Positions 1,123 through 23,373 of a stretch of 64,000 bases of DNA are shown here, piece after piece. The notes below the pieces were generated by a model. It was not told the DNA's origin. It searched no databases and was given only the letters and a program-made list of their open reading frames with translations. Origin of the DNA: Bacteroidota bacterium (GTDB lineage Bacteria; Bacteroidota; Bacteroidia; Chitinophagales; Saprospiraceae); NCBI GenBank assembly GCA_038749535.1, contig JBCDHX010000004.1, forward strand, positions 17,603 through 81,602, in the 5' to 3' direction. Numbering within the stretch: position 1 is the stretch's first letter; each line of letters opens with the position of its first letter. The position numbers were made by a program, and so were the translations under genes.

Positions 1123-1827
1123 TTATTCTTCTAATAAAAGCTCTTTCACTTCATCATACATCAGATCGACCCAAAGGGCGTACTGTGCGCCGGAAGGATG
1201 CAGCCCGTCAGAAGCGACTAGAGCCGTGTCATCAAGTCCATTTCTGGAGATAGGCGTGATGTCAAAATAAGCGATGTTGTAAGCTGTCGTTATTCGTTTA
1301 TTGATAGCATTGAAATCATTTATCCCTTTTGTGATCGCGTCGGTATCGGCTTCTTCAGATTGTCCGTAAGAGGTGAAAGCATAGTCCGGAATGGAAACGA
1401 CGAAGACCTTCTTCGTTTCGCCCTGTGCAAAAACAATTGCGCGCTGCAGTAAGTCTTCAAACTCTTGCGCATAAACACTGGTGTCCCTTTCTCTGAATTG
1501 ATTGTTGACGCCAATCAGCAGAGACACCATATCATAGTCGCTGCTCGGTTTTTCTTGGTTGATGCCAGCATTGAGTTCGTCTGTAGTCCAGCCTGTGGTA
1601 GCGACGATTTTGTAGTCAACTATTATGCTATCTGCTTCAAAATCTGCTGAAAGTAAAGCCGGATAAGTACTGTCACGCGCTACGCTTTCGCCTATGGTGT
1701 AAGAGTCGCCGAGTGCGAGATAGGTGTAGGTCTTCTTAGGCTCATCGGTGGTTGATGGTTCTGTGTTTTCGTTTTGACAAGAAAAAAAAGAAAGTAGTAT
1801 TAGTAGTAGTGAAAGTATCCTAAACAT
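1123..1827 (-). CDS. SGNH/GDSL-family hydrolase, probable lipoprotein
   Basis: Signal peptide ending in SFFSC. GDSYTIGE (block I Ser) and DGLHPS (block V D-x-x-H) are present. Confidence 0.8.
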   Translation of the reverse strand: MFRILSLLLILLSFFSCQNENTEPSTTDEPKKTYTYLALGDSYTIGESVARDSTYPALLSADFEADSIIVDYKIVATTGWTTDELNAGINQEKPSSDYDMVSLLIGVNNQFRERDTSVYAQEFEDLLQRAIVFAQGETKKVFVVSIPDYAFTSYGQSEEADTDAITKGINDFNAINKRITTAYNIAYFDITPISRNGLDDTALVASDGLHPSGAQYALWVDLMYDEVKELLLEE

Positions 1828-1899
1828 GAAATGAATTTTGTAGAAGTGGAAAGTAGGTGATTGTGAGATCTGTCTATCTAAGGCTGAAACGACTACCTA

Positions 1900-3132
1900 C
1901 TATCGCAAAAACAAAAGTATCAAAAACAAAGCGACAGAGACCGAAAAACCGACCATAAATACATTGTAAGAGATGGTGAGGAAGTAGTATTTTTTGGACA
2001 ATACTTTCCCCAAAAAGTAAAGATCACGACTCATATTTCCGTAGAGAAGATCATCTTTTCGGAGGACTTCATCCATGGCAGCTTCGTACTGATCGAGGCT
2101 GAGGGTGACAAAATTGCCGAAGAAAGCAATGTTTTTCTTGACTTCCTCTAGAGAGGTTTGATCTTCGTTGAGGTTGGTGACTTTGGGTCGTGCAGAAAGG
2201 ACAGCAAAGATGAGCGACGCCAAAGCTGTAACCAAAAAGATGACACCGGGCATGAGGACTTCGGGCTGCGTCTCTGTGATATTGCGCCAGGTCAAAACGG
2301 TAATCAAGACCGAAATCAAGATCGAATTGACGCTAATCATGATATTCGCTTTGTTGTCAGCGATGGCGCTGAGGTTGATGTGATTGCGATAGTTGGTGCG
2401 GAAGAAAGTTTGTGCGCCGCGTGTGCTGTTTTCTAGCTCCAGTTGCTCGAAAGGTTCGTGGACTCGCGATAAGCTGATCGGCTCTATATTTTTATTGAGT
2501 CGATTTTTGAGTTTAGCGATATGCTGGGCGACGATTGGCGTGTAATGTACTTTGGCATGAGCAGTATAGAATTTGACTTTTAGGAGTCGTTCTAGCTCTA
2601 GTGTTTGCCACTCCGATTTACTATACATTTGCTCTTGCATCAACTCCAGTTCCAGCCGCTCCAAAGCCGACTGCTCACTATAATTTTCGCCATAGCGCAC
2701 CCAGTTTATGGCATCTAAAAGCAATGCATCTACGGGTGTTTGTACGCGATGGTGTTCGACGTTTCTAATGGTCTGATGGACGACTTCAGTATCAATATCC
2801 CGCTCACTGTCACTCCACTTTTGTAATAATTGCTGACTAAAACGCTCATCCCTTAATCGACGCATTGCCTGAGCGTAAGCCGCTAATTGAGCTGTTTTTT
2901 GCTGTACTAAATCAGCAGGAGCAAGTTGCTGAATTTCTTCAACGATACGATGCAATCGAGCATAACTATGATAAACCATACTTGGCAAATGATGGTCATT
3001 GAAAGCTTGTAAAACTTCTTGCTGAACAGAAGGTAGCAATGTAGGCATGGGTGAAATAGGTGATGTCATAGGAAAGTGTAAAAGGCTATTTACAGAAAGT
3101 ACGCGTATCGACAACAGAAAGTTGTACAGCAT
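1900..3132 (-). CDS. Membrane protein with C-terminal DUF5706 / Pycsar-effector-like TM domain and a degenerate HD-like N-terminal region
   Basis: SAIADNKANIMISVNSILISVLITVL is followed by two more TM helices (VIFLVTALASLIFAVLSARP and a C-terminal FMVGFSVSVALFLILLFL). The N-terminus has YHSYARLH but no HD doublet. The true start is probably the internal MTSPISP near 3069. The family assignment is from memory. Confidence 0.5.
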   Translation of the reverse strand: MLYNFLLSIRVLSVNSLLHFPMTSPISPMPTLLPSVQQEVLQAFNDHHLPSMVYHSYARLHRIVEEIQQLAPADLVQQKTAQLAAYAQAMRRLRDERFSQQLLQKWSDSERDIDTEVVHQTIRNVEHHRVQTPVDALLLDAINWVRYGENYSEQSALERLELELMQEQMYSKSEWQTLELERLLKVKFYTAHAKVHYTPIVAQHIAKLKNRLNKNIEPISLSRVHEPFEQLELENSTRGAQTFFRTNYRNHINLSAIADNKANIMISVNSILISVLITVLTWRNITETQPEVLMPGVIFLVTALASLIFAVLSARPKVTNLNEDQTSLEEVKKNIAFFGNFVTLSLDQYEAAMDEVLRKDDLLYGNMSRDLYFLGKVLSKKYYFLTISYNVFMVGFSVSVALFLILLFLR

Positions 3133-3134
3133 AT

Positions 3135-4292
3135 TTATTTACTTTCTGAAACGCCTTTATTGCTGATGGATTGGTCGAAACGAAGGGCTTTTCGCATTTT
3201 GGTATGAATGGCAGTATTGTCATAGATACCTGAAAATAGTTCAGCCTGTGGTCCAAATGCAAAGACCGGAATCATGGTGCTGGTATGATCGTTGGTGGTG
3301 AATTCTAGTTTTAGCTTTCGTTTTTTCGAGCCAGGATTGATCGCTAAGCCACCCGTTTCATGATCGGCAGTGACGATGACGAGTGTTTCTCCATCTTCGG
3401 TGGCCATAGCTAGCACCTCCCCTATTGCTTTATCAAAATCCAACATTTCAGCTACCAACAATTGACCTTCGTTCGCATGACCTGCCCAGTCGATCTGAGA
3501 ACCTTCTATCATCATAAAGAAGCCTTTTTCGCTATGTTTTTTCAGAAAATTGATGCCCATCTTGCTAGCATAAGGCAAATAAGAACGTCCTTGTATGACT
3601 GGTAGTGGGTCGCTATTGGCAGAAAAATAGATGAAATTTTGGTCTGATTTAGGTCGATAGCCAGTCAGTTCGCTATCTCTGAAACTCTTGACTGAATACC
3701 CTTTTTCTTGCAGCTCTTTGTACAGATTTCGCTCATCAAATTCTCTGTAGTCAAAATATCGCTGACCACCACCGACCAAAAAGTCAACCTCGACATCTAG
3801 AAAATCTGCCGCGATATTTTCAAAGAAAACGCGCATGGGTTCATGTGCGACGAAAGCAGCAGGCGTGGCATGTGTGATGGGAGAAGTGACGACCATACCA
3901 GTTGCCATTCCTTTGGCTTCTGCCTCTTCTAAAATGGTAAAACAGGGCATCGTATCCGTCCCCATACCTATGGCACCATTATAAGTCTTGATGCCACAAG
4001 CGAAAGCAGTTGCTCCGGCAGCTGAGTCTGTTTTGAGGTTATCCGCAGAATGAGATTTGTGAAAACCTATAACGGGAAATCGTTCCAGATTGAGCTTTTT
4101 CTTAGAAGAATAAATGGCGGCTGTAACTTGTGATAGCCCCATTCCGTCTCCTATCATAAGAACGATATTTTTGGGGTATTCCTTTTTACTTTTGGGTAAT
4201 GCGCCCATCTTGTCAGTAGCTTTTTTCGTCTCTCCGCATCCCAATAGCAATAAAATGATGAGTGCCTGACTACACCAGTTGAAAATGTCCAT
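3135..4292 (-). CDS. Alkaline phosphatase (PhoA family), lipoprotein
   Basis: MIGDGMGLSQVTAA and TDSAAGATAFACG (active-site Ser region) are present. A lipobox LLLLGCG follows the internal start MDIFNW, so the track ORF 3135..4319 was trimmed. Confidence 0.9.
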   Translation of the reverse strand: MDIFNWCSQALIILLLLGCGETKKATDKMGALPKSKKEYPKNIVLMIGDGMGLSQVTAAIYSSKKKLNLERFPVIGFHKSHSADNLKTDSAAGATAFACGIKTYNGAIGMGTDTMPCFTILEEAEAKGMATGMVVTSPITHATPAAFVAHEPMRVFFENIAADFLDVEVDFLVGGGQRYFDYREFDERNLYKELQEKGYSVKSFRDSELTGYRPKSDQNFIYFSANSDPLPVIQGRSYLPYASKMGINFLKKHSEKGFFMMIEGSQIDWAGHANEGQLLVAEMLDFDKAIGEVLAMATEDGETLVIVTADHETGGLAINPGSKKRKLKLEFTTNDHTSTMIPVFAFGPQAELFSGIYDNTAIHTKMRKALRFDQSISNKGVSESK

Positions 4293-7532: not shown

Positions 7533-8510
7533 ATGCAAACATTACAAGACTACCAAAAGCGATATCTAGCTTATCAGGCATCCCATCCTTTTACACGCGA
7601 GCCAGTCGGGCTTTATCAACCCATCGACTACATCCTTAATTTGGGTGGCAAACGAATGCGACCTGTTGCCTTGTTGATGGCTTATGGACTATACCATGAT
7701 GAGATCGCGCCGGCACTTCCGGCAGCTTATGCCATTGAGATTTTCCACAATTTTACATTGGTACACGATGACATCATCGACCATGCGCCGCTGAGACGAA
7801 AGCAGCCGACCGTACATGAAAAATGGAATTTAAATACAGGTATTCTATCCGGTGATGTCATGCTCGTATATGCTTACGAGTATTTGGCACAACTCCCCCA
7901 GATAGAGCGCCTACCAAATATTTTGAGCACTTTCAATAAAGCAGCCATAGAAGTCTGTGAAGGTCAGCAGTACGATGTCAATTTCGAGACACAAAGCATC
8001 GTAGAGATCGATGAGTACTTACACATGATCGAATTGAAAACGTCAGTTTTGCTAGCAGCGGCAATGAAAATAGGTGCGCTGGTAGCAGAAGCAAGTCATG
8101 AAGATGCAGAACATTTGTATCAATTTGGTCGGAATATTGGTATCGCTTTTCAGCTACAAGACGACTACCTCGATACCTTCGGCGATCCTGATAAATTTGG
8201 GAAGAAAGTAGGTGGTGACATCGCTCAGAATAAGAAGACCTTCTTGATTTTGAAAGCTCTGGAAGTGGCAAGTACAACCATGCGAAATCGCCTACTGGAA
8301 CTGATGAATGACCAAACCAAAGTAGAAGAGGTTCGCATCGCAGCCATCACACAAACATTGCGCGAATTGAATATCGATCAACTCACAAAAGAAAAGAAAA
8401 ACGAATATCAACAGCGCGCTTTTGAGCATCTCAATGCTATCTCTGTCAGCGATGAACGAAAGCAAATCTTGCGTGATCTGGCGGATATGTTGCTGGATAG
8501 GGAAGTATAA
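7533..8510 (+). CDS. Polyprenyl diphosphate synthase (trans-isoprenyl diphosphate synthase family)
   Basis: First DDxxD motif in LVHDDIID; second in QLQDDYLD. Confidence 0.9.
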   Translation: MQTLQDYQKRYLAYQASHPFTREPVGLYQPIDYILNLGGKRMRPVALLMAYGLYHDEIAPALPAAYAIEIFHNFTLVHDDIIDHAPLRRKQPTVHEKWNLNTGILSGDVMLVYAYEYLAQLPQIERLPNILSTFNKAAIEVCEGQQYDVNFETQSIVEIDEYLHMIELKTSVLLAAAMKIGALVAEASHEDAEHLYQFGRNIGIAFQLQDDYLDTFGDPDKFGKKVGGDIAQNKKTFLILKALEVASTTMRNRLLELMNDQTKVEEVRIAAITQTLRELNIDQLTKEKKNEYQQRAFEHLNAISVSDERKQILRDLADMLLDREV

Positions 8511-16331: not shown

Positions 16332-16684
16332 GTTTTGAGTCTGTATTATGGGTCGTAAAAATTTGAATGTCAAGTTTGAGTATAGACGAATAGCTCAACA
16401 TTCTTAGTCTACGCTCAATAATAAATTGCTATTCCTCGACGGTAACAATTTGTTTATTTCACATGGCTTTAGAATACTGAGCTATTCTATAATTTCTAAC
16501 AAATTTAAACGGTGAAGTTCGGAAAAAGATAATTTTTAGAAAGATTTTTTAGAATTGTGTCGAAGATCTGTTGTTAGCTTTATGGAAACATCATCTAATG
16601 AATAGATAATCAATAGCAGTCATTTATAGCTGCTTATGAGCGTTTGTCTATGTATGATTCTGAATGTGTAAAAAGACGAAGGAA

Positions 16685-17551
16685 ATGTTTGGCAGACAAC
16701 TATCAATATTACTCATCCTGTCAACACTACTGGCTAATGGTTGTGGAACAGGTTTATCAATACCTCAAGACATCAATGTCACAGGTAGCATATTTTATCC
16801 TGATGTCCTTTCTACTGAAGCATTTTCGGAAAATTCAATCAGTTTCACCAAGGATGAGCGTACAATATTCGTTTCTAGAACAACGGGTTGGCAATATCAA
16901 TCGGGTCATCTATCAAAGAAACAAAAAGGGGCTTTTGTTACTACTACACCTATTCAGCAGTTGGATTCTATTTACAACGGCGCAATCAGTCCATCAGGAA
17001 AGAAGATCATCTTCTGCTCCAAGAAAAATGAGCAAGAAGAGATATTTTTACTTTCAAAACGAAAAGGCAAATGGAATACAATGGAAAATATATCGACCAC
17101 CTCTGATATATATGGCGGATACTTTTACTGGTCAAATGAGGAAGAACTCTACTTCTACACGTCCGCAAGTAAGGGAGACATTGTCCGTGGCAAATTGAAT
17201 GGAAATCAACTGACCATAACAGACGAATTAGACAACTTGAATACACCTGATGGCACAGAATTCAGTCCATTCGTAGACAAGAAAAAACGCTATATCATCT
17301 TTACCAGATACTTGGAAGGCGATAGCGATCAACAAGGTTTTTTCATTAGTTTTAATCGCTCAACAAGCAGACAGCCGGATTGGTCTACTCCGAAGAAAGT
17401 AGCGTTCTTGCCTTATGGCTGGAATGCTTATGTCCTTGAGCAAGAAAGCTTATTGCTCTACTCCAATGGTGACGACATCATTAAGATTCCGCTGAAAAAA
17501 TTCAATCTTGAAATTGATAAAATAAGGAATGCTATGACTAACGATGAATAA
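16685..17551 (+). CDS. Lipoprotein with PD40 / TolB-like beta-propeller repeats
   Basis: Lipobox LLANGCG. PD40-like repeats ISPSGKKIIF and FSPFVDKKKRYIIF. Confidence 0.55.
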   Translation: MFGRQLSILLILSTLLANGCGTGLSIPQDINVTGSIFYPDVLSTEAFSENSISFTKDERTIFVSRTTGWQYQSGHLSKKQKGAFVTTTPIQQLDSIYNGAISPSGKKIIFCSKKNEQEEIFLLSKRKGKWNTMENISTTSDIYGGYFYWSNEEELYFYTSASKGDIVRGKLNGNQLTITDELDNLNTPDGTEFSPFVDKKKRYIIFTRYLEGDSDQQGFFISFNRSTSRQPDWSTPKKVAFLPYGWNAYVLEQESLLLYSNGDDIIKIPLKKFNLEIDKIRNAMTNDE

Positions 17552-17606: not shown

Positions 17607-17795
17607 CTACCTTTCCACCGCCTTCAACATCCCTTTCAGCTCATTCAACTTCATCATACATTCTATTGGTGTTATGCTACCCGGTGTAGAAGTAGCTGGC
17701 AAGTGTCCAATGCTAATTGATTTGTTTTTAGCGAAAAAATTAGATGTAATCCCTTCAATCACCTGAATTTTCTCAAAATACTTAGTTTTAAGCAT
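17607..17795 (-). pseudogene. Displaced duplicate of the mutS 3' end (last ~22 codons) fused to unrelated sequence
   Basis: The C-terminus ITPIECMMKLNELKGMLKAVER matches the MutS C-terminus MTPIECMMKLNELKGMLEVVEG. The DNA core is identical over 48 bp. Confidence 0.8.
17625..17672. repeat. Direct repeat copy 1 (48 bp exact; partner at 19639..19686)
   Basis: CAACATCCCTTTCAGCTCATTCAACTTCATCATACATTCTATTGGTGT occurs identically at both positions. Weaker similarity extends about 20 bp further toward the stop codons. Confidence 0.9.
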
Positions 17796-17840
17796 ATATT
17801 TTTATAATATTGTGTGAGTTGACGTAAATACCCTCTGTAC

Positions 17841-19004
17841 ATGGATCAATTAAACAAAGCGAGAAAACTTATCAGTCAGAATAGCTTATTCGAGGCTATA
17901 CAGACACTTCGTAATCTTCCCATAAAAAGTAAGCTTAAAATTAGCTTAAATGTAGCTGAGAGTAGACTTAACGCTGTCAACGAAAAGATCCGTTTGGGAA
18001 CCCTATCCGATAGCGAAATCAACATTGAACTAAACAAAATTAGGCATAGCTTACTTGAAGTTTGCGAGCAATTTTCTCTAGATCAGGAGAGAAAAGAAGC
18101 CAATGGTAATCGTAAATTATACCTACTATTCGCGGGTTTAGCTGCTATTGTTTTGGTCAGCATTGTATCTTATAAGCTATTGTCTAAAGACTCTTCTAAA
18201 ATGATATGCCTAGACCATAAGATAGCAATTCTGGTGGCTGACTTTAAAAATAACGAAAATCCTGACTACACGGATGCTTTCGCTAACAGCTTGGTTACGA
18301 CCATGGATCAAGCTCTATTGGATTCACTTTATGATGTAAGACCCGTCGGAAAGCAGACACGAAAAATCAGATCTTACAACAACTCTATAAAGCTGAAGTA
18401 CTTTGATGCTTCTTGTGATACAAGTGGCTTATTCGTCAATGGCTTTCTGTCTAAAGAAGAGGAAGTATTTAATATGTATATCACGATAGCTAATTTGGAA
18501 GTAAAGATGCCAGAGTTTTCAGAACAAAAGGGCATTATTCTCGACAATCCAGAAGGCTTCGAATTTTCAATCAGTGAAGACGCTAAGTTTCTAGCCAATT
18601 TCATTGTAGCCATTATTATGAGCTATGAAGGACAAACATACGAGGCACTAAAAATATTTTTTGACCTGGAAAAGCAAAAAGGGGAGGAAGGTATTGAGGA
18701 TGATAACTTAAAAGCTGTGCTGTCACATTATAAAGGTAACTGCTATGCAGTAAGAGGAGATAGTAAAAGAGCGAAGGAAGAGTACGAGGTAGCTGAAGAA
18801 TACGGCAATTCTGAACTAAAAATATCCTCCAAAAAAAATAAAAATGCAGCTGAGAAGATTAACGCTGAAATGGAATCAGATCCTGAACTACGAAAGCAAC
18901 TTAATCAAAATCGCTACGAGCATTCTAATTTTGAAAAAGAACTTTTAAGAGTACTCAGAGGCGTAGAAAGAGAGATAAATAGAATTTTTAGGGGACTCCA
19001 ATAA
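17841..19004 (+). CDS. Single-pass membrane protein: N-terminal helical adaptor-like module, TM helix, IAVLPF-type domain, TPR-like C-terminus
   Basis: The N-terminus SRLNAVNEKIRLGTLSDSEINIELNKIRHSLLEV resembles the short helical modules found on conflict and signalling proteins (from memory). The TM helix is LYLLFAGLAAIVLVSIVSY. It is followed by KIAILVADFKNNENPDYTDAFANSLV. Confidence 0.45.
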   Translation: MDQLNKARKLISQNSLFEAIQTLRNLPIKSKLKISLNVAESRLNAVNEKIRLGTLSDSEINIELNKIRHSLLEVCEQFSLDQERKEANGNRKLYLLFAGLAAIVLVSIVSYKLLSKDSSKMICLDHKIAILVADFKNNENPDYTDAFANSLVTTMDQALLDSLYDVRPVGKQTRKIRSYNNSIKLKYFDASCDTSGLFVNGFLSKEEEVFNMYITIANLEVKMPEFSEQKGIILDNPEGFEFSISEDAKFLANFIVAIIMSYEGQTYEALKIFFDLEKQKGEEGIEDDNLKAVLSHYKGNCYAVRGDSKRAKEEYEVAEEYGNSELKISSKKNKNAAEKINAEMESDPELRKQLNQNRYEHSNFEKELLRVLRGVEREINRIFRGLQ

Positions 19005-19055
19005 CTAAAAACTTATATAAATACCATTTCAATAACACTAAAACATTTATTTCCA

Positions 19056-19556
19056 ATGAAAAACCTATTATTAACTCTAGGGCTCATTTTAACCTTTCTT
19101 ATAACAGCCAATGCACAAAGAAACTATGATACTGCCATTGGTGCTAGACTTGGGTATCCTATTTCTCTCTCACTGAAAAGATATATTTCAGATGCAGGCG
19201 CGATAGAAGCCAATTTGGGATTTAGAGGAAATGTCAGCTACAATTGGATTGTAGTAAGTGGTGCATATTTGCATCATAAATCCTTTAACATTGATGAGTT
19301 ACCTAGCCTCAATTGGTACTATGGAGGTGGTGCATCAGTCTATTTTTGGAGCTACGACACTGACTTTCTGAGAAGTCAATATGGCTCTACGACTATAGGT
19401 CTTCAAGGCTATTTAGGAGTCGAGTATACTTTTAGTGAGGCACCGATTAATATTACTTTAGATTGGGTTCCCACCATATTTGTAAATGGCTTTACCTCTG
19501 GTTTTGGAGGTAGATATGGGTCGCTAGGTATCCGGTATGTACTAGGCAGAAACTAA
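19056..19556 (+). CDS. Small outer-membrane beta-barrel protein
   Basis: Signal peptide ending in TANAQ. The sequence shows alternating aromatic/Gly-rich beta-strand patterns and is 166 aa long. Confidence 0.55.
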   Translation: MKNLLLTLGLILTFLITANAQRNYDTAIGARLGYPISLSLKRYISDAGAIEANLGFRGNVSYNWIVVSGAYLHHKSFNIDELPSLNWYYGGGASVYFWSYDTDFLRSQYGSTTIGLQGYLGVEYTFSEAPINITLDWVPTIFVNGFTSGFGGRYGSLGIRYVLGRN

Positions 19557-19620
19557 TTTAATTGAATAGAAAGCTGTCTTTCTTGAATAGCATTTTTACT
19601 GAAGAGAAAGACAGCCTCTT

Positions 19621-22269
19621 TCACCCTTCTACCACTTCCAACATCCCTTTCAGCTCATTCAACTTCATCATACATTCTATTGGTGTCATGGAGTTCAAGT
19701 TCAAATCTTCCAGCGCCTGTTTTAGCTGCTCCAAACGTGGATCGTTCTGCTCAAATATGCTCAATTGCATAGGTGCACTCAGATGCTGAGTGGCTACTTG
19801 TTTGGTCGGAATATCTGCCTCTCCGTTATTGATCGACTTTTGTTCCAGTTGCGTTAAAATATGTCCGGCACGCTCGACGATGCTGCGTGGCATTCCTGCC
19901 ATTTTCGCAACATGAATCCCGAAACTATGCTGACTGCCACCAGGCACGAGTTTGCGCAGGAAAATAATTTTCCGCTCGATTTCTTTAGTAGCAATATGGT
20001 AGTTTTTGATGCGTGGAAATTTATTGGCAAGTTCGTTCAGTTCGTGATAGTGAGTTGCGAAAAGCGTCTTCGCGCCGCTTTGATGATGCAAATATTCTGC
20101 AATCGACCAAGCAATAGAAATGCCATCATAGGTACTCGTCCCGCGCCCGATTTCGTCTAGTAAAATCAAACTACGATCTGAAATATTATTCATGATGCTC
20201 GCCGTCTCGTTCATTTCGACCATGAAAGTCGACTCGCCGGACGAAATATTATCAGAAGCACCTACACGCGTAAAGACTTTATCCACCCAACCCAATTTAG
20301 CACTTTCTGCCGGAACAAAACTCCCCATCTGCGCCATCAAACAAATCAGAGCTGTCTGCCGCAACAGTGCTGATTTTCCTGCCATATTCGGTCCAGTAAT
20401 CATCAAAATCTGTTGCTCTTCTCGGTCGAGATAGACATCATTTGGGACATAGGTTTCTCCGATAGGCATTTGCTGCTCGATGACCGGATGACGCCCGGCT
20501 TTGATGTCGATGACGTAGCTGTCGTTGAGTTCCGGTCGGCAGTAGCTGTAACGTTGAGCGACTTTGGCGAAAGAGAGTAAACAGTCCAATCGAGCGATCA
20601 AACTAGCATTGTGCTGAATCGGCTGAATGAACTCAGCAATGCTATTGATTAACTGCTCATACAATCGCGCTTCTAATGCCAATATCTTTTCTTCTGCTCC
20701 TAAAATCTTGCTTTCTAAGACTTTAAGTTCGTCGGTGATGTAGCGTTCAGAGCCGGTCAACGTTTGTTTGCGCACCCACTCAGGCGGCACCATGCCTTTA
20801 TTCTTGTATTTATTAGTGACTTCCAGATAATACCCAAAGACATTATTGAACCCAATTTTGAGATTGTCGATTCCGGTACGTTCGGCTTCGGTGTTTTGTA
20901 TTTCGATCAGCAGATTTTTGCTGTTGTTGACGATGCTGCGTAGTTCGTCTAACTCAGGGTTAATGCCATCTGCCATGACGCCGCCTTTGACGACATTGAC
21001 GGGCGGCTCTTCGACGACTTGTCGCTCTATTTGTTGACGTAAACTATCGCAGGCATGTAGACCATCGCCTATCTTTTGTAGATAAGCATTTTCACTATCC
21101 AAAAGCAACTGCTTGACAGGCTTTAATGCTTCCAATGCCCGACGAAGTTGAATGACTTCACGCGGATTGATCTTTCCCAATGGCACTTTAGAAATCAATC
21201 GCTCCAAATCACCCATCTGTCGGAAGTAGGTTTCCAACTCCTGCGCCAATTCTGCTTCCTTCAAAAAGTAATCCACAATGTCCAAACGACTTTCGACTTG
21301 CTGCACCGATTTAAGTGGCAAGACCGTCCATTTTTTGAGCAGTCGCGCGCCCATTGGCGACACCGTTTTATCTAGTACTTTCAGCAAAGGCACACCACCT
21401 TCATGTGGGCTATGTATCAGTTCTAAATTACGAATCGTAAATCTATCCAGCCACACGTAGCGATCGGGTTGTATGCGGCTAATGCTGGTGATGTGGCGAA
21501 GATTTTTGTTTTCAGTCGTCTCCAAATAGTGTAAAATCGCACCCGCAGCTATTTGCGCTAGTTGCAGATTTTCTACCCCAAATCCTTTCAGATTTTTGAC
21601 TTGAAAATGGCTAGTCAATTTCTCTAATCCATAGTCAAGCGAAAACACCCATTCATCCAATGGAAAGGTGTAAAATTTATCTCCAAATTGATCTTTAAAA
21701 CTATTATTTTGGTCTTTAGAGAAGATGATTTCGGAGGGTTGTAAACTTTGAAGTAGCTTGTCGATATAACCGCTATTCCCTTCGCTCACTAGAAACTCTC
21801 CGGTGGAGACATCAAGGAAAGCAATACCTAATTTCCCTTTCTTCCCGAAGCTGAGTGCTGCTAAATAATTGTTGCTTTTGTGGTCGAGTAATTGGTCATC
21901 GACAGCAATGCCGGGCGTGACGACTTCTGTGACACCTCGCTTGACGATTTTCTTTTCTTTGCTTGGTTTTTCAAGTTGCTCACATATAGCTACACGATAA
22001 CCTGCACGCACCAGTCGCGGCAAATATAAATTCATAGAATGATGCGGAAAACCTGCCAATTCGATCTTACTACCACCGTTATTCCGCGCCGTCAAAATGA
22101 TGCCTAATACTTGCGAAGCAGTGATCGCATCCTCCCCAAACGTCTCATAGAAGTCACCCACGCGGAAGAGCAAAATCGCACTTGGATACTTTGCTTTCAG
22201 CGCGAAATACTGCTTCATCAAGGGCGTGATTTTGCCCGGTTTTTTCGTCGTTTTTCTCGTCTTCGCCAA
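19621..22269 (-). CDS. mutS: DNA mismatch repair protein MutS
   Basis: TPLMKQYFALKAKYP, FRVGDFYETFGEDA and the Walker A motif ITGPNMAGKS are present. Length 882 aa. Confidence 0.97.
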   Translation of the reverse strand: MAKTRKTTKKPGKITPLMKQYFALKAKYPSAILLFRVGDFYETFGEDAITASQVLGIILTARNNGGSKIELAGFPHHSMNLYLPRLVRAGYRVAICEQLEKPSKEKKIVKRGVTEVVTPGIAVDDQLLDHKSNNYLAALSFGKKGKLGIAFLDVSTGEFLVSEGNSGYIDKLLQSLQPSEIIFSKDQNNSFKDQFGDKFYTFPLDEWVFSLDYGLEKLTSHFQVKNLKGFGVENLQLAQIAAGAILHYLETTENKNLRHITSISRIQPDRYVWLDRFTIRNLELIHSPHEGGVPLLKVLDKTVSPMGARLLKKWTVLPLKSVQQVESRLDIVDYFLKEAELAQELETYFRQMGDLERLISKVPLGKINPREVIQLRRALEALKPVKQLLLDSENAYLQKIGDGLHACDSLRQQIERQVVEEPPVNVVKGGVMADGINPELDELRSIVNNSKNLLIEIQNTEAERTGIDNLKIGFNNVFGYYLEVTNKYKNKGMVPPEWVRKQTLTGSERYITDELKVLESKILGAEEKILALEARLYEQLINSIAEFIQPIQHNASLIARLDCLLSFAKVAQRYSYCRPELNDSYVIDIKAGRHPVIEQQMPIGETYVPNDVYLDREEQQILMITGPNMAGKSALLRQTALICLMAQMGSFVPAESAKLGWVDKVFTRVGASDNISSGESTFMVEMNETASIMNNISDRSLILLDEIGRGTSTYDGISIAWSIAEYLHHQSGAKTLFATHYHELNELANKFPRIKNYHIATKEIERKIIFLRKLVPGGSQHSFGIHVAKMAGMPRSIVERAGHILTQLEQKSINNGEADIPTKQVATQHLSAPMQLSIFEQNDPRLEQLKQALEDLNLNSMTPIECMMKLNELKGMLEVVEG
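19639..19686. repeat. Direct repeat copy 2 (inside the functional mutS 3' end)
   Basis: Identical 48 bp to 17625..17672. Confidence 0.9.
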
Positions 22270-22467
22270 TTTAAAGTAGATTGTTTTGAACTCGTAAATA
22301 TAGGGCGACTTAGACGATTTAGAATCATTTTGAGTGACTCATTTTTCTACTTTTTGTATTGGAAAATGTCATTAAATACTGGATACGTTTTTACTATATT
22401 TACTGGAATAAAATAGAGACTCAACTTAATCATCAAAGTTATGGTTTATAATTTATAAAGCGAACAG

Positions 22468-23121
22468 ATGACAAAGCAACTATCCTTTTCTAATATTCGA
22501 TTCAAAGACTTAAAAGCGATTGCTCCTATTGAGCAGTCAGCGAATGAAGTTGTATTTGAGGATTGGTTTAATTATCCCTATGAATTTAATGAAGAAGAGA
22601 TTGCTTTTTTGACTGATTTGATTGTTAGAAATCGCTTGAAAATCAATGCTTATACTGAAGAAGAATTGAAAGCCAAATTTTTGATTCCACTACTCAATAA
22701 AGTAGACTTTGTGAAAGGTGAAGTGAGTGATTGGTACGAACGAAATATCCGAGGAAAAATCAATGGTGTGGAGATAGGAGGTGTCACTGACTTTATGGTA
22801 GCAAAAGGTGTGAAAGAACCGGAGACGCCTTATTTTTATATCCAAGAATTTAAGCCTTCTAAGCCGAGCGTATTTCCCGAAGATCAACTGCTAGCGGAGC
22901 TGATGGTATCAGTTGAGCTGGAAGGTAAACAGTCTATGAAAGGTGCCTATATAGTCGGTCAGTTTTGGACATTTGTTATTCTAGAAAAACAACCAAATGG
23001 CAGCTTTATTCTGTATCTAGCTCCTAGCTTAGATGCCTTAAAACTGGAAGATTTACAGGAAATCTATAAGCATCTAAAAGCGGTGAAGGCGGAAATTTTG
23101 GAGAAGGTAAGTCAACAATAA
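22468..23121 (+). CDS. PD-(D/E)xK nuclease-fold protein (HSDR_N-like)
   Basis: GGVTDFMVAKG ... PYFYIQEFKPSK fits the D...E-x-K signature of restriction-endonuclease-like folds. Confidence 0.5.
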   Translation: MTKQLSFSNIRFKDLKAIAPIEQSANEVVFEDWFNYPYEFNEEEIAFLTDLIVRNRLKINAYTEEELKAKFLIPLLNKVDFVKGEVSDWYERNIRGKINGVEIGGVTDFMVAKGVKEPETPYFYIQEFKPSKPSVFPEDQLLAELMVSVELEGKQSMKGAYIVGQFWTFVILEKQPNGSFILYLAPSLDALKLEDLQEIYKHLKAVKAEILEKVSQQ

Positions 23122-23128
23122 TATATTC

Positions 23129-23298
23129 CTCAGTAGTCAGTCATATTAGTAATGTCGAATAGATTGCGTGTATCTTTTTGTTAATTGAGGCGCGAAAGTT
23201 GGAACATAACTGGTTATGAAGCCTACTTTCGCAACGCTGAGTAACGGAAAAAGACACATCAATATTATCCGACAGGATTAGCGTGACAGACTACTCAG
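23129..23298. repeat. Long imperfect palindrome (~170 nt extended hairpin)
   Basis: Outer arms 23129-23143 and 23284-23298 pair at 13/15 positions. Arms 23154-23179 and 23248-23273 give 17 Watson-Crick plus 2 G-T pairs out of 26. The inner stem is GCGAAAGT / ACTTTCGC, and the apex is CATAA-ctgg-TTATG. Confidence 0.6.
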
Positions 23299-23373
23299 TT
23301 GGATTTTATCACAAAACCATGTTCTAAATGTAGTTGATTGATATTATGTTTGTGCTAACAATCAATCAGTTTC

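Follow-up and report, generated by a model that had tools for sequence, protein, structure and literature searches.

A 1.9-kb, A+T-rich block of two genes appears, by analogy with other loci and from its base composition, to have been inserted at the 3′ end of the mutS gene of a Saprospiraceae bacterium, in such a way that mutS was kept complete and its old tail was displaced or duplicated at the far border of the insert. The locus lies in a stretch of 64,000 nucleotides (the window, G000:C4:17603-81602) of a 5.9-Mb metagenome-assembled genome (MAG) in 260 contigs, here labelled G000; relatives are labelled in the same manner (G006, the nearest relative, G005, G010, G357 and so on). We favour the interpretation that the scar at mutS is one case of a general process in G000 that is unspecific as to target and proceeds without an integrase and without a fixed attachment (att) site. 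At this locus the process would have been a homology-dependent insertion-duplication involving a diverged mutS allele, a reading that we hold with a probability of roughly 0.55. The features concerned are the following, by position in the window.

17607-17676, minus strand: copy of the mutS tail, displaced or duplicated, with the last 22 codons (ITPIECMMKLNELKGMLKAVER) and the stop; 62 of 70 nt identical to 19621-19690
17607-17795, minus strand: chimeric open reading frame (ORF) of 62 amino acids (aa), 39 cassette-derived codons fused to the mutS-tail copy, no Pfam match
17677-19620: inserted segment of 1,944 nt, 36.2% G+C (GC), with no recombinase and no RNA family (GC profile, ORFs, Pfam)
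17841-19004, plus strand: cargo gene 1, 387 aa, with an EAD11 adaptor domain, a transmembrane helix and an extracytoplasmic domain (Pfam; AlphaFold2, AF2)
19056-19556, plus strand: cargo gene 2, 166 aa, with a signal peptide and an 8-stranded OmpA/OprF-N-like barrel (AF2, Foldseek)
19573-19615: 11-bp perfect inverted repeat (GCTGTCTTTCT / AGAAAGACAGC) with a 21-nt loop, read from the sequence between the convergent stops of the barrel gene and mutS
19621-19690, minus strand: resident copy of the repeat, the actual mutS 3′ end (MTPIECMMKLNELKGMLEVVEG and the stop; repeat alignment, ORF list)
19621-22269, minus strand: mutS, intact, 882 aa, 94% aa identity to G006

The end of mutS occurs twice in direct orientation. 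The repeat found by alignment measures 68 nt at 91% identity (17609-17676 and 19623-19690, with a spacing of 2014 nt); with the stop codons (TAG and TGA, in one register) as starting points of the alignment, it extends over 70 nt with eight mismatches, at positions 4, 53, 55, 57, 61, 65, 69 and 70 in the direction of the gene. Its exact core of 48 nt (17625-17672 = 19639-19686), already located correctly in an earlier, sequence-only reading of this DNA, is far beyond chance, and the search for further copies that this reading had proposed found only these two in the 5.9-Mb genome. Local alignment detected no homology past 17677 or 19691, where the similarity ends abruptly and without a weaker extension. 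The frames for products of 62, 387 and 166 aa are likewise as first described; the 62-aa chimera, whose matches in relatives are limited to its 20 mutS-derived residues, is probably no gene.

The two copies form a mosaic. They are identical at 48 of 48 positions of the core, at five of which G006 differs, and seven of the eight mismatches fall within the last 18 nt, after this identical run (P ~0.007). These last 18 nt are still homologous, with 11 of 18 positions identical (61%; P ~0.003 for the identity alone) and with the stops in register. Such a pattern, 48 nt identical and then 18 nt diverged, favours a crossover with a diverged allele over uniform decay after plain duplication. The incoming DNA, circularised or anchored at one end, would have carried the cassette beside a mutS-tail copy from a slightly diverged allele, and a crossover between the resident and the incoming tail within the 48-nt identical stretch, of Campbell type or a one-end-anchored equivalent, could have given the gene-proximal copy the incoming last six codons and left the original last six codons in the distal copy. 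Campbell-type insertion-duplication, the single crossover of a circle with a target fragment that is used in insertion-duplication mutagenesis, produces the same succession of target copy, insert and target copy, with hybrid alleles on either side of the crossover, and thereby fits the mosaic at mutS.

The composition and content of the insert are in line with an insertion. Only 0.7% of the 2-kb windows of the genome (43.1% GC; standard deviation of 2.3 among such windows) have a GC below its 36.2%, and its cargo is absent near mutS in five same-genus relatives. The insertion footprint recognised in the sequence-only reading, with mutS complete and its tail displaced or duplicated, is upheld. 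Neither an integrase nor a transposase nor any other mobility gene was found in or beside the insert among ORFs and Pfam matches, in agreement with what had been read from the sequence, and no PF00589 match was found on contig C4. Searches for RNA families and consensus terminators gave none in the region; the 11-bp inverted repeat is a possible bidirectional terminator, although the consensus terminator scan did not call one.

The same layout recurs at at least four other genes of G000, as found by comparing the last 120-150 nt of each long ORF with the 15 kb downstream, followed by inspection. The duplications measure 46-338 nt and the cargo consists mostly of PIN toxin-antitoxin (TA) pairs. 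The last of the loci listed here was only glanced at; it resembles the other scars and is counted separately from them.

C77:9513-11612: tail of a beta-lactamase-family serine hydrolase gene, 53 nt, 98% identity; cargo a PIN_3 toxin and an 80-aa partner (antitoxin)
C2:85364-87661: tail of a NucA-type endonuclease gene, ~46 nt, 91%; cargo an Xre helix-turn-helix (HTH) protein and a 164-aa ORF
C24:41373-45228: tail of a TauD dioxygenase gene, 104 nt, 91%; LytTR membrane protein, outer-membrane protein (OMP)-like protein and serine hydrolase
C53, ~1800-4012, plus strand: TolC-like gene, 115 nt, 92%; cargo a PIN pair
C206:5570-7190: 5′ end, with the start codon, of the gene for a 723-aa protein, 338 nt, 93%; cargo a PIN pair
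C136:11190-13510: part of an XisH/XisI-like pair duplicated

All inserts have 34-40% GC and sizes of 0.7-3 kb, and the outer boundary lies at the stop codon, within 1 nt, in five of the six 3′-end cases. The remnant at C24 carries a nonsense codon. None of the seven cassettes examined contains an integrase or lies close to one, the nine PF00589 matches of G000 being all on other contigs, and no motif, attC-like or inverted repeat, is shared by the cassette ends across G000. For the C2 scar, G006 provides an empty site, where the endonuclease stop is followed by a 218-nt spacer and an acyl-CoA dehydrogenase (ACAD) gene without a cassette, and the G000 spacer after the C2 remnant aligns with that of G006. 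At C2, therefore, the new tail and the cassette are a derived insertion, and the remnant with the DNA downstream of it is the ancestral arrangement.

This layout brings to mind insertion with long target duplication, of which Nobusato, Uchiyama, Ohashi and Kobayashi reportedly gave an earlier account in 2000 (Gene 259:99). In the version of Furuta, Abe and Kobayashi (2010, Nucleic Acids Research, PMC2853133), restriction-modification (RM) genes lie between long direct repeats of variable length (>30 bp to ~420 bp) that match a single-copy target in an empty-site genome, with no other mobile element and by a mechanism described as unknown. As in G000, the published blocks are below 20 kb and have no integrase or transposase, their repeats, 90-100% identical, are often at gene ends, and their GC is often below that of the genome (PMC2853133). 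At mutS, the repeat pair around the insert exceeds 30 bp and has no further copy in the genome (70 nt, of which 48 form the exact core), and the insert, of 1,944 nt, is well within the size limit and carries no mobility gene; an empty-site genome is available at the sister locus C2 (G006) only. The cargo differs, since in place of RM genes we find an EAD11 protein and an OMP barrel at mutS and PIN TA pairs at the sister loci. Further differences are that the class has been published for RM systems and mcrA, mostly in naturally competent proteobacteria, whereas here it concerns a member of the Saprospiraceae, that at least four sister loci occur in one genome, and that the mutS copy pair is a mosaic and not uniformly similar. 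By analogy with C2, the mutS scar would thus match insertion with long target duplication in all but its cargo, and acquisition by a route other than an integrase, the second of two options left by the sequence-only reading, is the better one.

The mutS locus itself is variable among relatives. Same-genus genomes have mutS DNA that is 73-83% identical, with a similarity that ends at the mutS stop codon, and in the five whose sequence continues for at least 1.9 kb past mutS, the tail occurs once and sucA and the PD40, EAD11 and barrel genes are all missing from that stretch. Next after mutS in G006 come iscA and a cysteine desulfurase gene, both of which in G000 are on contig C116 beside other genes. 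Gene order is heavily shuffled in the family, synteny 3′ of mutS is not conserved, and homologues of all three low-GC genes (for the PD40-repeat, EAD11 and barrel proteins) are found in same-genus relatives at other places.

A second duplicated mutS tail was found in a survey of ~494 loci, made up of 401 family genomes searched with a 50-aa tail query, 68 other Bacteroidota loci and the 25 metagenome loci that carry the TPIECMMKLNELK motif; the survey is blind to duplicates shorter than ~25 codons or 14 nt. Seven family genomes gave two matches, and only those of G000 and G357 are true duplicates; the second match is a 119-nt contig overlap in G384, goes with Nextera adapters at contig ends in G399, reflects two full mutS genes in G230 and is due to chance in G023 and G169. 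No tail duplicate was present in the 68 other Bacteroidota loci or the 25 metagenome loci. In the public MAG G399, contigs C120 and C505 (L095 and L096) end in Nextera adapter (CTGTCTCTTATACACATCT) inside mutS, a contamination that splits the gene.

In G357, which belongs to another Saprospiraceae genus, a copy of the last 141 nt of mutS lies 929 nt downstream and keeps the register. The cassette between the two copies holds one gene, for a 216-aa secreted OMP-like protein that is unrelated to the G000 barrel, and the two mutS cassettes share no cargo. GC changes from ~59% to 34% and back to ~59%, with breaks exactly at the repeats and an insert 25 GC points below its flanks. The G357 tail remnant has two frameshifts. 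A synonymous excess, as a sign of allelic origin of this remnant, fails against a null expectation of 50% synonymous changes (P 0.09), which was chosen because the resident copy accumulates synonymous changes only. Elsewhere in G357, a ~35-nt sequence at the start of an M20 peptidase gene (L092 6100-6135, G357:C242) recurs with 85-94% identity on at least 10 other contigs and is therefore a short dispersed repeat.

Several observations weigh against our reading of the mutS locus. The low-GC block begins at ~16400, beyond the left repeat, and takes in a PD40-repeat gene, and therefore that repeat does not mark the border in composition; of the A+T-richness claimed for the cassette in the sequence-only reading, the low value stands and the left border does not. 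EAD11-family genes are A+T-rich relative to their flanks in other genomes as well, so that the gene family itself accounts for part of the low GC, which alone is a weak sign of recent import. The DNA downstream of mutS in the five relatives is unrelated to the left flank in the window and offers no clean empty site, and as there is neither such a site nor a closer strain, we infer the insertion at mutS by analogy and composition. At C53, the gene-proximal copy has the conserved native end, as judged by orthologues, and the distal copy is without the last 15 nt, a pattern that is not predicted by the topology of a simple single crossover, nor by any simple model; an empty site for C53 was not found in G005. 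Later gene conversion could mimic the mosaic at mutS. Finally, Campbell-type insertion needs a natural source of target-carrying circles, none of which was observed, and a circle that carries a copy of the target presupposes an earlier event that created it and first joined cassette and tail.

Among the alternatives, the main rival is a pure target duplication, as pictured by Nobusato and Kobayashi, which is possible, if doubtful. Both tails would come from one resident sequence and have diverged since, through a two-ended illegitimate joining in which the ends of the cassette were ligated to staggered breaks, or to two sister chromosomes, at points 70 nt apart, with no homologous recombination and no foreign mutS allele. 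Incoming DNA would need no prior homology, and such a route suits the variable lengths (46-338 nt), the arbitrary targets and the 5′-end case. It is also the way in which the class is defined in the literature, and it agrees with the decay-type changes in the C2 and C24 remnants, nonsense codon included, and with a G357 remnant that has frameshifts and no significant synonymous excess. Uniform drift, however, is unlike what is seen at mutS, where copies identical over 48 nt differ by 39% over the next 18 nt, and the stop-codon outer boundary in five of six 3′-end cases is unexplained by such joining, although selection for an intact gene explains part of it. The crossover with a diverged allele therefore remains our preferred reading at this locus.

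Integration into the 3′ end of a gene, with supply of a replacement end, is familiar from e14 and phage 21 at icd. ICESt1/3 elements and cis-mobilisable elements (CIMEs) integrate in the 3′ end of fda (CIMEs: PMC5704250). Elements of this type resemble the mutS scar in that the gene is intact, a displaced pseudo-3′-end lies at the far border and an identical core stands beside a diverged end. Accordingly, a decayed site-specific element, or a CIME-like remnant without integrase, might have used the 48-nt core as attP and supplied the replacement end. The mutS locus shows precisely the architecture of attL/attR in a protein gene, with an identical core of 48 nt, a replacement end that diverges over 18 nt (61% identity) and a displaced pseudo-end; the mutS tail has been struck in two genera, and CIMEs with att sites and without integrase are documented (PMC5704250, PMC6323972). 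We nevertheless find this explanation improbable. Elements at icd and fda rely on a dedicated integrase, which they may encode themselves, and recombine at one constant att core, whereas the cassettes in G000 have no integrase in or near any of the seven, with the nine tyrosine-recombinase matches on other contigs, and occupy five different targets in one genome (six with C136), one of them a 5′ end, that have no common sequence; repeat lengths are variable and inserts measure only 0.7-3 kb. No cognate tyrosine or serine recombinase is encoded in the mutS cassette, and no att core is reused in other genomes, a second mutS tail being present, among the ~494 loci surveyed, only in G000 and G357, with unrelated cargo. 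The decayed, attL/attR-like integrase element put forward as the first option in the sequence-only reading is thus not borne out, given at least four unrelated targets, duplications of 46-338 nt, no end motifs and no recombinase on the cassette contigs. We also rejected the mutS tail as an att hotspot: with at least four scars among the ~5,000 genes of G000, duplicates at 2 of ~494 mutS loci are about what chance would give, and no mutS-specific targeting is needed.

It is very improbable that the repeat is a relic of segmental duplication, left when native DNA was long ago duplicated or rearranged locally, without any acquisition. The barrel family is common and single-copy here, same-genus homologues of all three low-GC genes exist at other places and gene order in the family is heavily shuffled, all of which would suit native DNA. 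Against this, nothing else of mutS or of its flanks is duplicated, the core is identical at 48 of 48 positions where G006 has five differences, which makes the event recent or homogenised, the sister locus C2 has a clean empty site, and the insert in G357 lies 25 GC points below its flanks.

An assembly artefact, in which the contig would combine an empty mutS site with a 2-kb circle, or a strain variant, that exists separately and has the core in common with it, is unlikely and the least credible of these explanations. The genome is a MAG of 260 contigs, and a Logan contig of run SRR22824304, which reproduces 17643-19668 at 100% identity in an independent assembly, has both ends inside the repeat, as must be the case for an assembly with k=31. 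Yet this contig contains both inner junctions, the standard final k-mers of assemblers (>=55) exceed the 48-nt core, repeats of 115-338 nt with 92% identity cannot collapse in this way, an equivalent structure exists in the unrelated assembly of G357, and the scenario still needs a circle carrying a mutS tail. In exact look-ups, the two cargo proteins were found in run SRR22824304 only, mutS and the PD40 protein in no other sample, and an exact 41-mer of the core had no match in the metagenomes of the Joint Genome Institute (JGI). A diversity-generating retroelement (DGR) was rejected, there being no reverse transcriptase among the ORFs and Pfam matches and mismatches (G/A, A/G, T/C etc.) that are not A-specific, as was a shufflon, since there is no invertase, the orientation is direct and the two ends code for nearly the same peptide.

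Two further systems bear comparison. At rhs and cdiA loci, C-terminal toxin/immunity modules are displaced into "orphan" arrays: as at mutS, the gene gains a new 3′ end together with cargo, and its former end comes to lie further downstream, with a short stretch of sequence in common; but the swapped ends there code for different toxins and diversify the gene, whereas at mutS both ends specify almost the same peptide and the cargo has no relation to the gene. Directly 3′ of mutS, enteric bacteria have the mutS-rpoS polymorphic region with its variable foreign DNA, from which no tail duplication is known to us; in G000, by contrast, mutS is one of several targets, so that no mutS-specific explanation is needed.

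The entry of small accessory modules without a mobility gene into chromosomes is poorly understood, and the scar described here has been known since 2000 almost only with RM cargo. Our results add that it also frames TA pairs and a gene of an EAD11 conflict system, that it occurs at least five times in one Saprospiraceae genome, at both 3′ and 5′ gene ends, and that the mosaic of the mutS copies, which points to homologous exchange with a diverged allele, offers a testable handle on the mechanism. We tentatively suggest, as a possibility that is itself rather unlikely, that Saprospiraceae, and perhaps many bacteria, harbour a form of cassette mobility that is independent of recombinases or depends on an unknown enzyme, and in which modules home into gene ends while the gene is spared. 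Selfish modules such as PIN TA pairs, EAD11 genes and small OMPs would then travel as circles or fragments with a copy of a host gene end. For RM genes, a life cycle of insertion, amplification and release has been proposed, with experimental support for the amplification step only (PMC2853133). If our suggestion is correct, long target duplications would permit excision and re-insertion, the "virus-like life cycle" proposed by Kobayashi's group and never demonstrated, and G000, with its scars at five loci or more (six with C136), would be a natural test bed for it. For annotation, short pseudo-ends of housekeeping genes beside A+T-rich islets should be read as insertion scars and not as evidence of integrases or gene decay.

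The cargo has no role in the insertion, and its function is silent on how the cassette was inserted. The product of cargo gene 1 begins with an EAD11 domain (PF19964, E 1.5e-13, 51 bits against a cut-off of 26). Its single long transmembrane helix, which agrees with the single-pass membrane protein predicted earlier, is followed by a conserved extracytoplasmic part of ~260 aa with two invariant cysteines, modelled as an alpha/beta subdomain with TPR-like helices (AF2 predicted local distance difference test, pLDDT, of 84). The best Protein Data Bank (PDB) match of this part is the periplasmic sensor domain of CadC, a weak one, and no Pfam family covers the C-terminal domain. The family has 18 members among 5.8 billion proteins, of which 16 have EAD11 and two have TIR_2 instead, all in a receptor-like topology of cytoplasmic EAD11 or TIR_2, one transmembrane helix and an extracytoplasmic domain; the exchange of EAD11 for TIR in these two is compatible with a cytoplasmic part that acts in signalling or as an effector. 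Elsewhere, the EAD11 homologues are solo genes in differing contexts, A+T-rich relative to their flanks and without flanking repeats, with the exception of one metagenome contig (L204).

EADs are small adaptor domains without enzymatic activity; a genome typically has several of them, and through homotypic contacts they connect a core NTPase with effectors encoded at scattered sites (PMC7159879). G000 has 17 PF19964 matches in 16-17 EAD11 ORFs, one of which (G000:C80:19546-23646, minus strand) encodes 1361 aa, combines two EAD11 domains with a KAP-family P-loop NTPase and is a candidate for the core of an EAD11 conflict network. This parallels the EAD-coupled NTPase conflict systems of Kaur, Burroughs, Iyer and Aravind (2020, PMC7159879), where one EAD resides on the core NTPase and further copies on dispersed effectors, in that EAD11 is found on both the cargo and the KAP NTPase; it differs in that the cargo gene is away from the core and the partner domain is an uncharacterised extracytoplasmic one and no recognised enzyme effector. 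Cargo gene 1 adjoins no core component of an EAD system, its neighbours being the barrel gene and the mutS tail. Its product is probably an envelope-spanning, sensor- or effector-like spoke of the EAD11 network of G000, recruited through homotypic EAD11 contacts.

Cargo gene 2 encodes the beta-barrel protein expected from its sequence, the AF2 model being a confident antiparallel barrel of eight strands (pLDDT 86, predicted template modelling score, pTM, 0.78). Foldseek matched it to OprF-N (4rlc, E 3.7e-5) and OmpA (1qjp), with template modelling (TM) scores of 0.62-0.75. Members of the family occur in 78 of 121 Saprospiraceae genomes, with a single copy in G000, and at none of 12 family loci checked was a homologue beside mutS or an EAD11 gene. 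We rejected a conserved two-gene cassette, as homologues of the barrel and EAD11 genes are not paired at the loci checked save on L204 (7438-9700; ENA ERZ25072999, contig ctg287230). On this unrelated metagenome contig, a barrel homologue (58% identity) lies directly upstream of the EAD11 homologue P0007, in the order opposite to that of the window, a weak indication that a circular intermediate exists. On either side of the EAD11 gene and a small ORF, L204 has a 37-nt palindromic hairpin (at 7953 and 9648), the two copies of which show compensatory differences.

On either side of the mutS locus, the window contains other A+T-rich genes. To the left of the repeat, the lipoprotein-like PD40 gene (WD40-like beta-propeller repeat; 16664-17551) has 38% GC and a 63%-identical homologue in G010 in another context; the A+T-rich block is larger than the repeat-bounded cassette. 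Beyond the start of mutS, a 217-aa PD-(D/E)xK-like ORF (22468-23121) with a palindromic spacer behind it constitutes an indel relative to G006 (22322-23347 of the window, 37% GC), for which no flanking direct repeat was found; in G006, mutS and an M20 peptidase gene are ~250 nt apart at this site. Other repeats in G000 include the identical ends, of 65-98 nt, of contigs C167 (12 / 11960) and C156 (1 / 13498), each ~12-13.5 kb long; the ends of the two contigs share sequence in opposite orientation, and the contigs may be circular elements or the repeats ends of insertion sequences (IS). Contig C23 carries an exact 85-nt repeat pair (44544 / 51794) 7.25 kb apart, and a related 42-nt pair is found on C2 (32155 / 49662).

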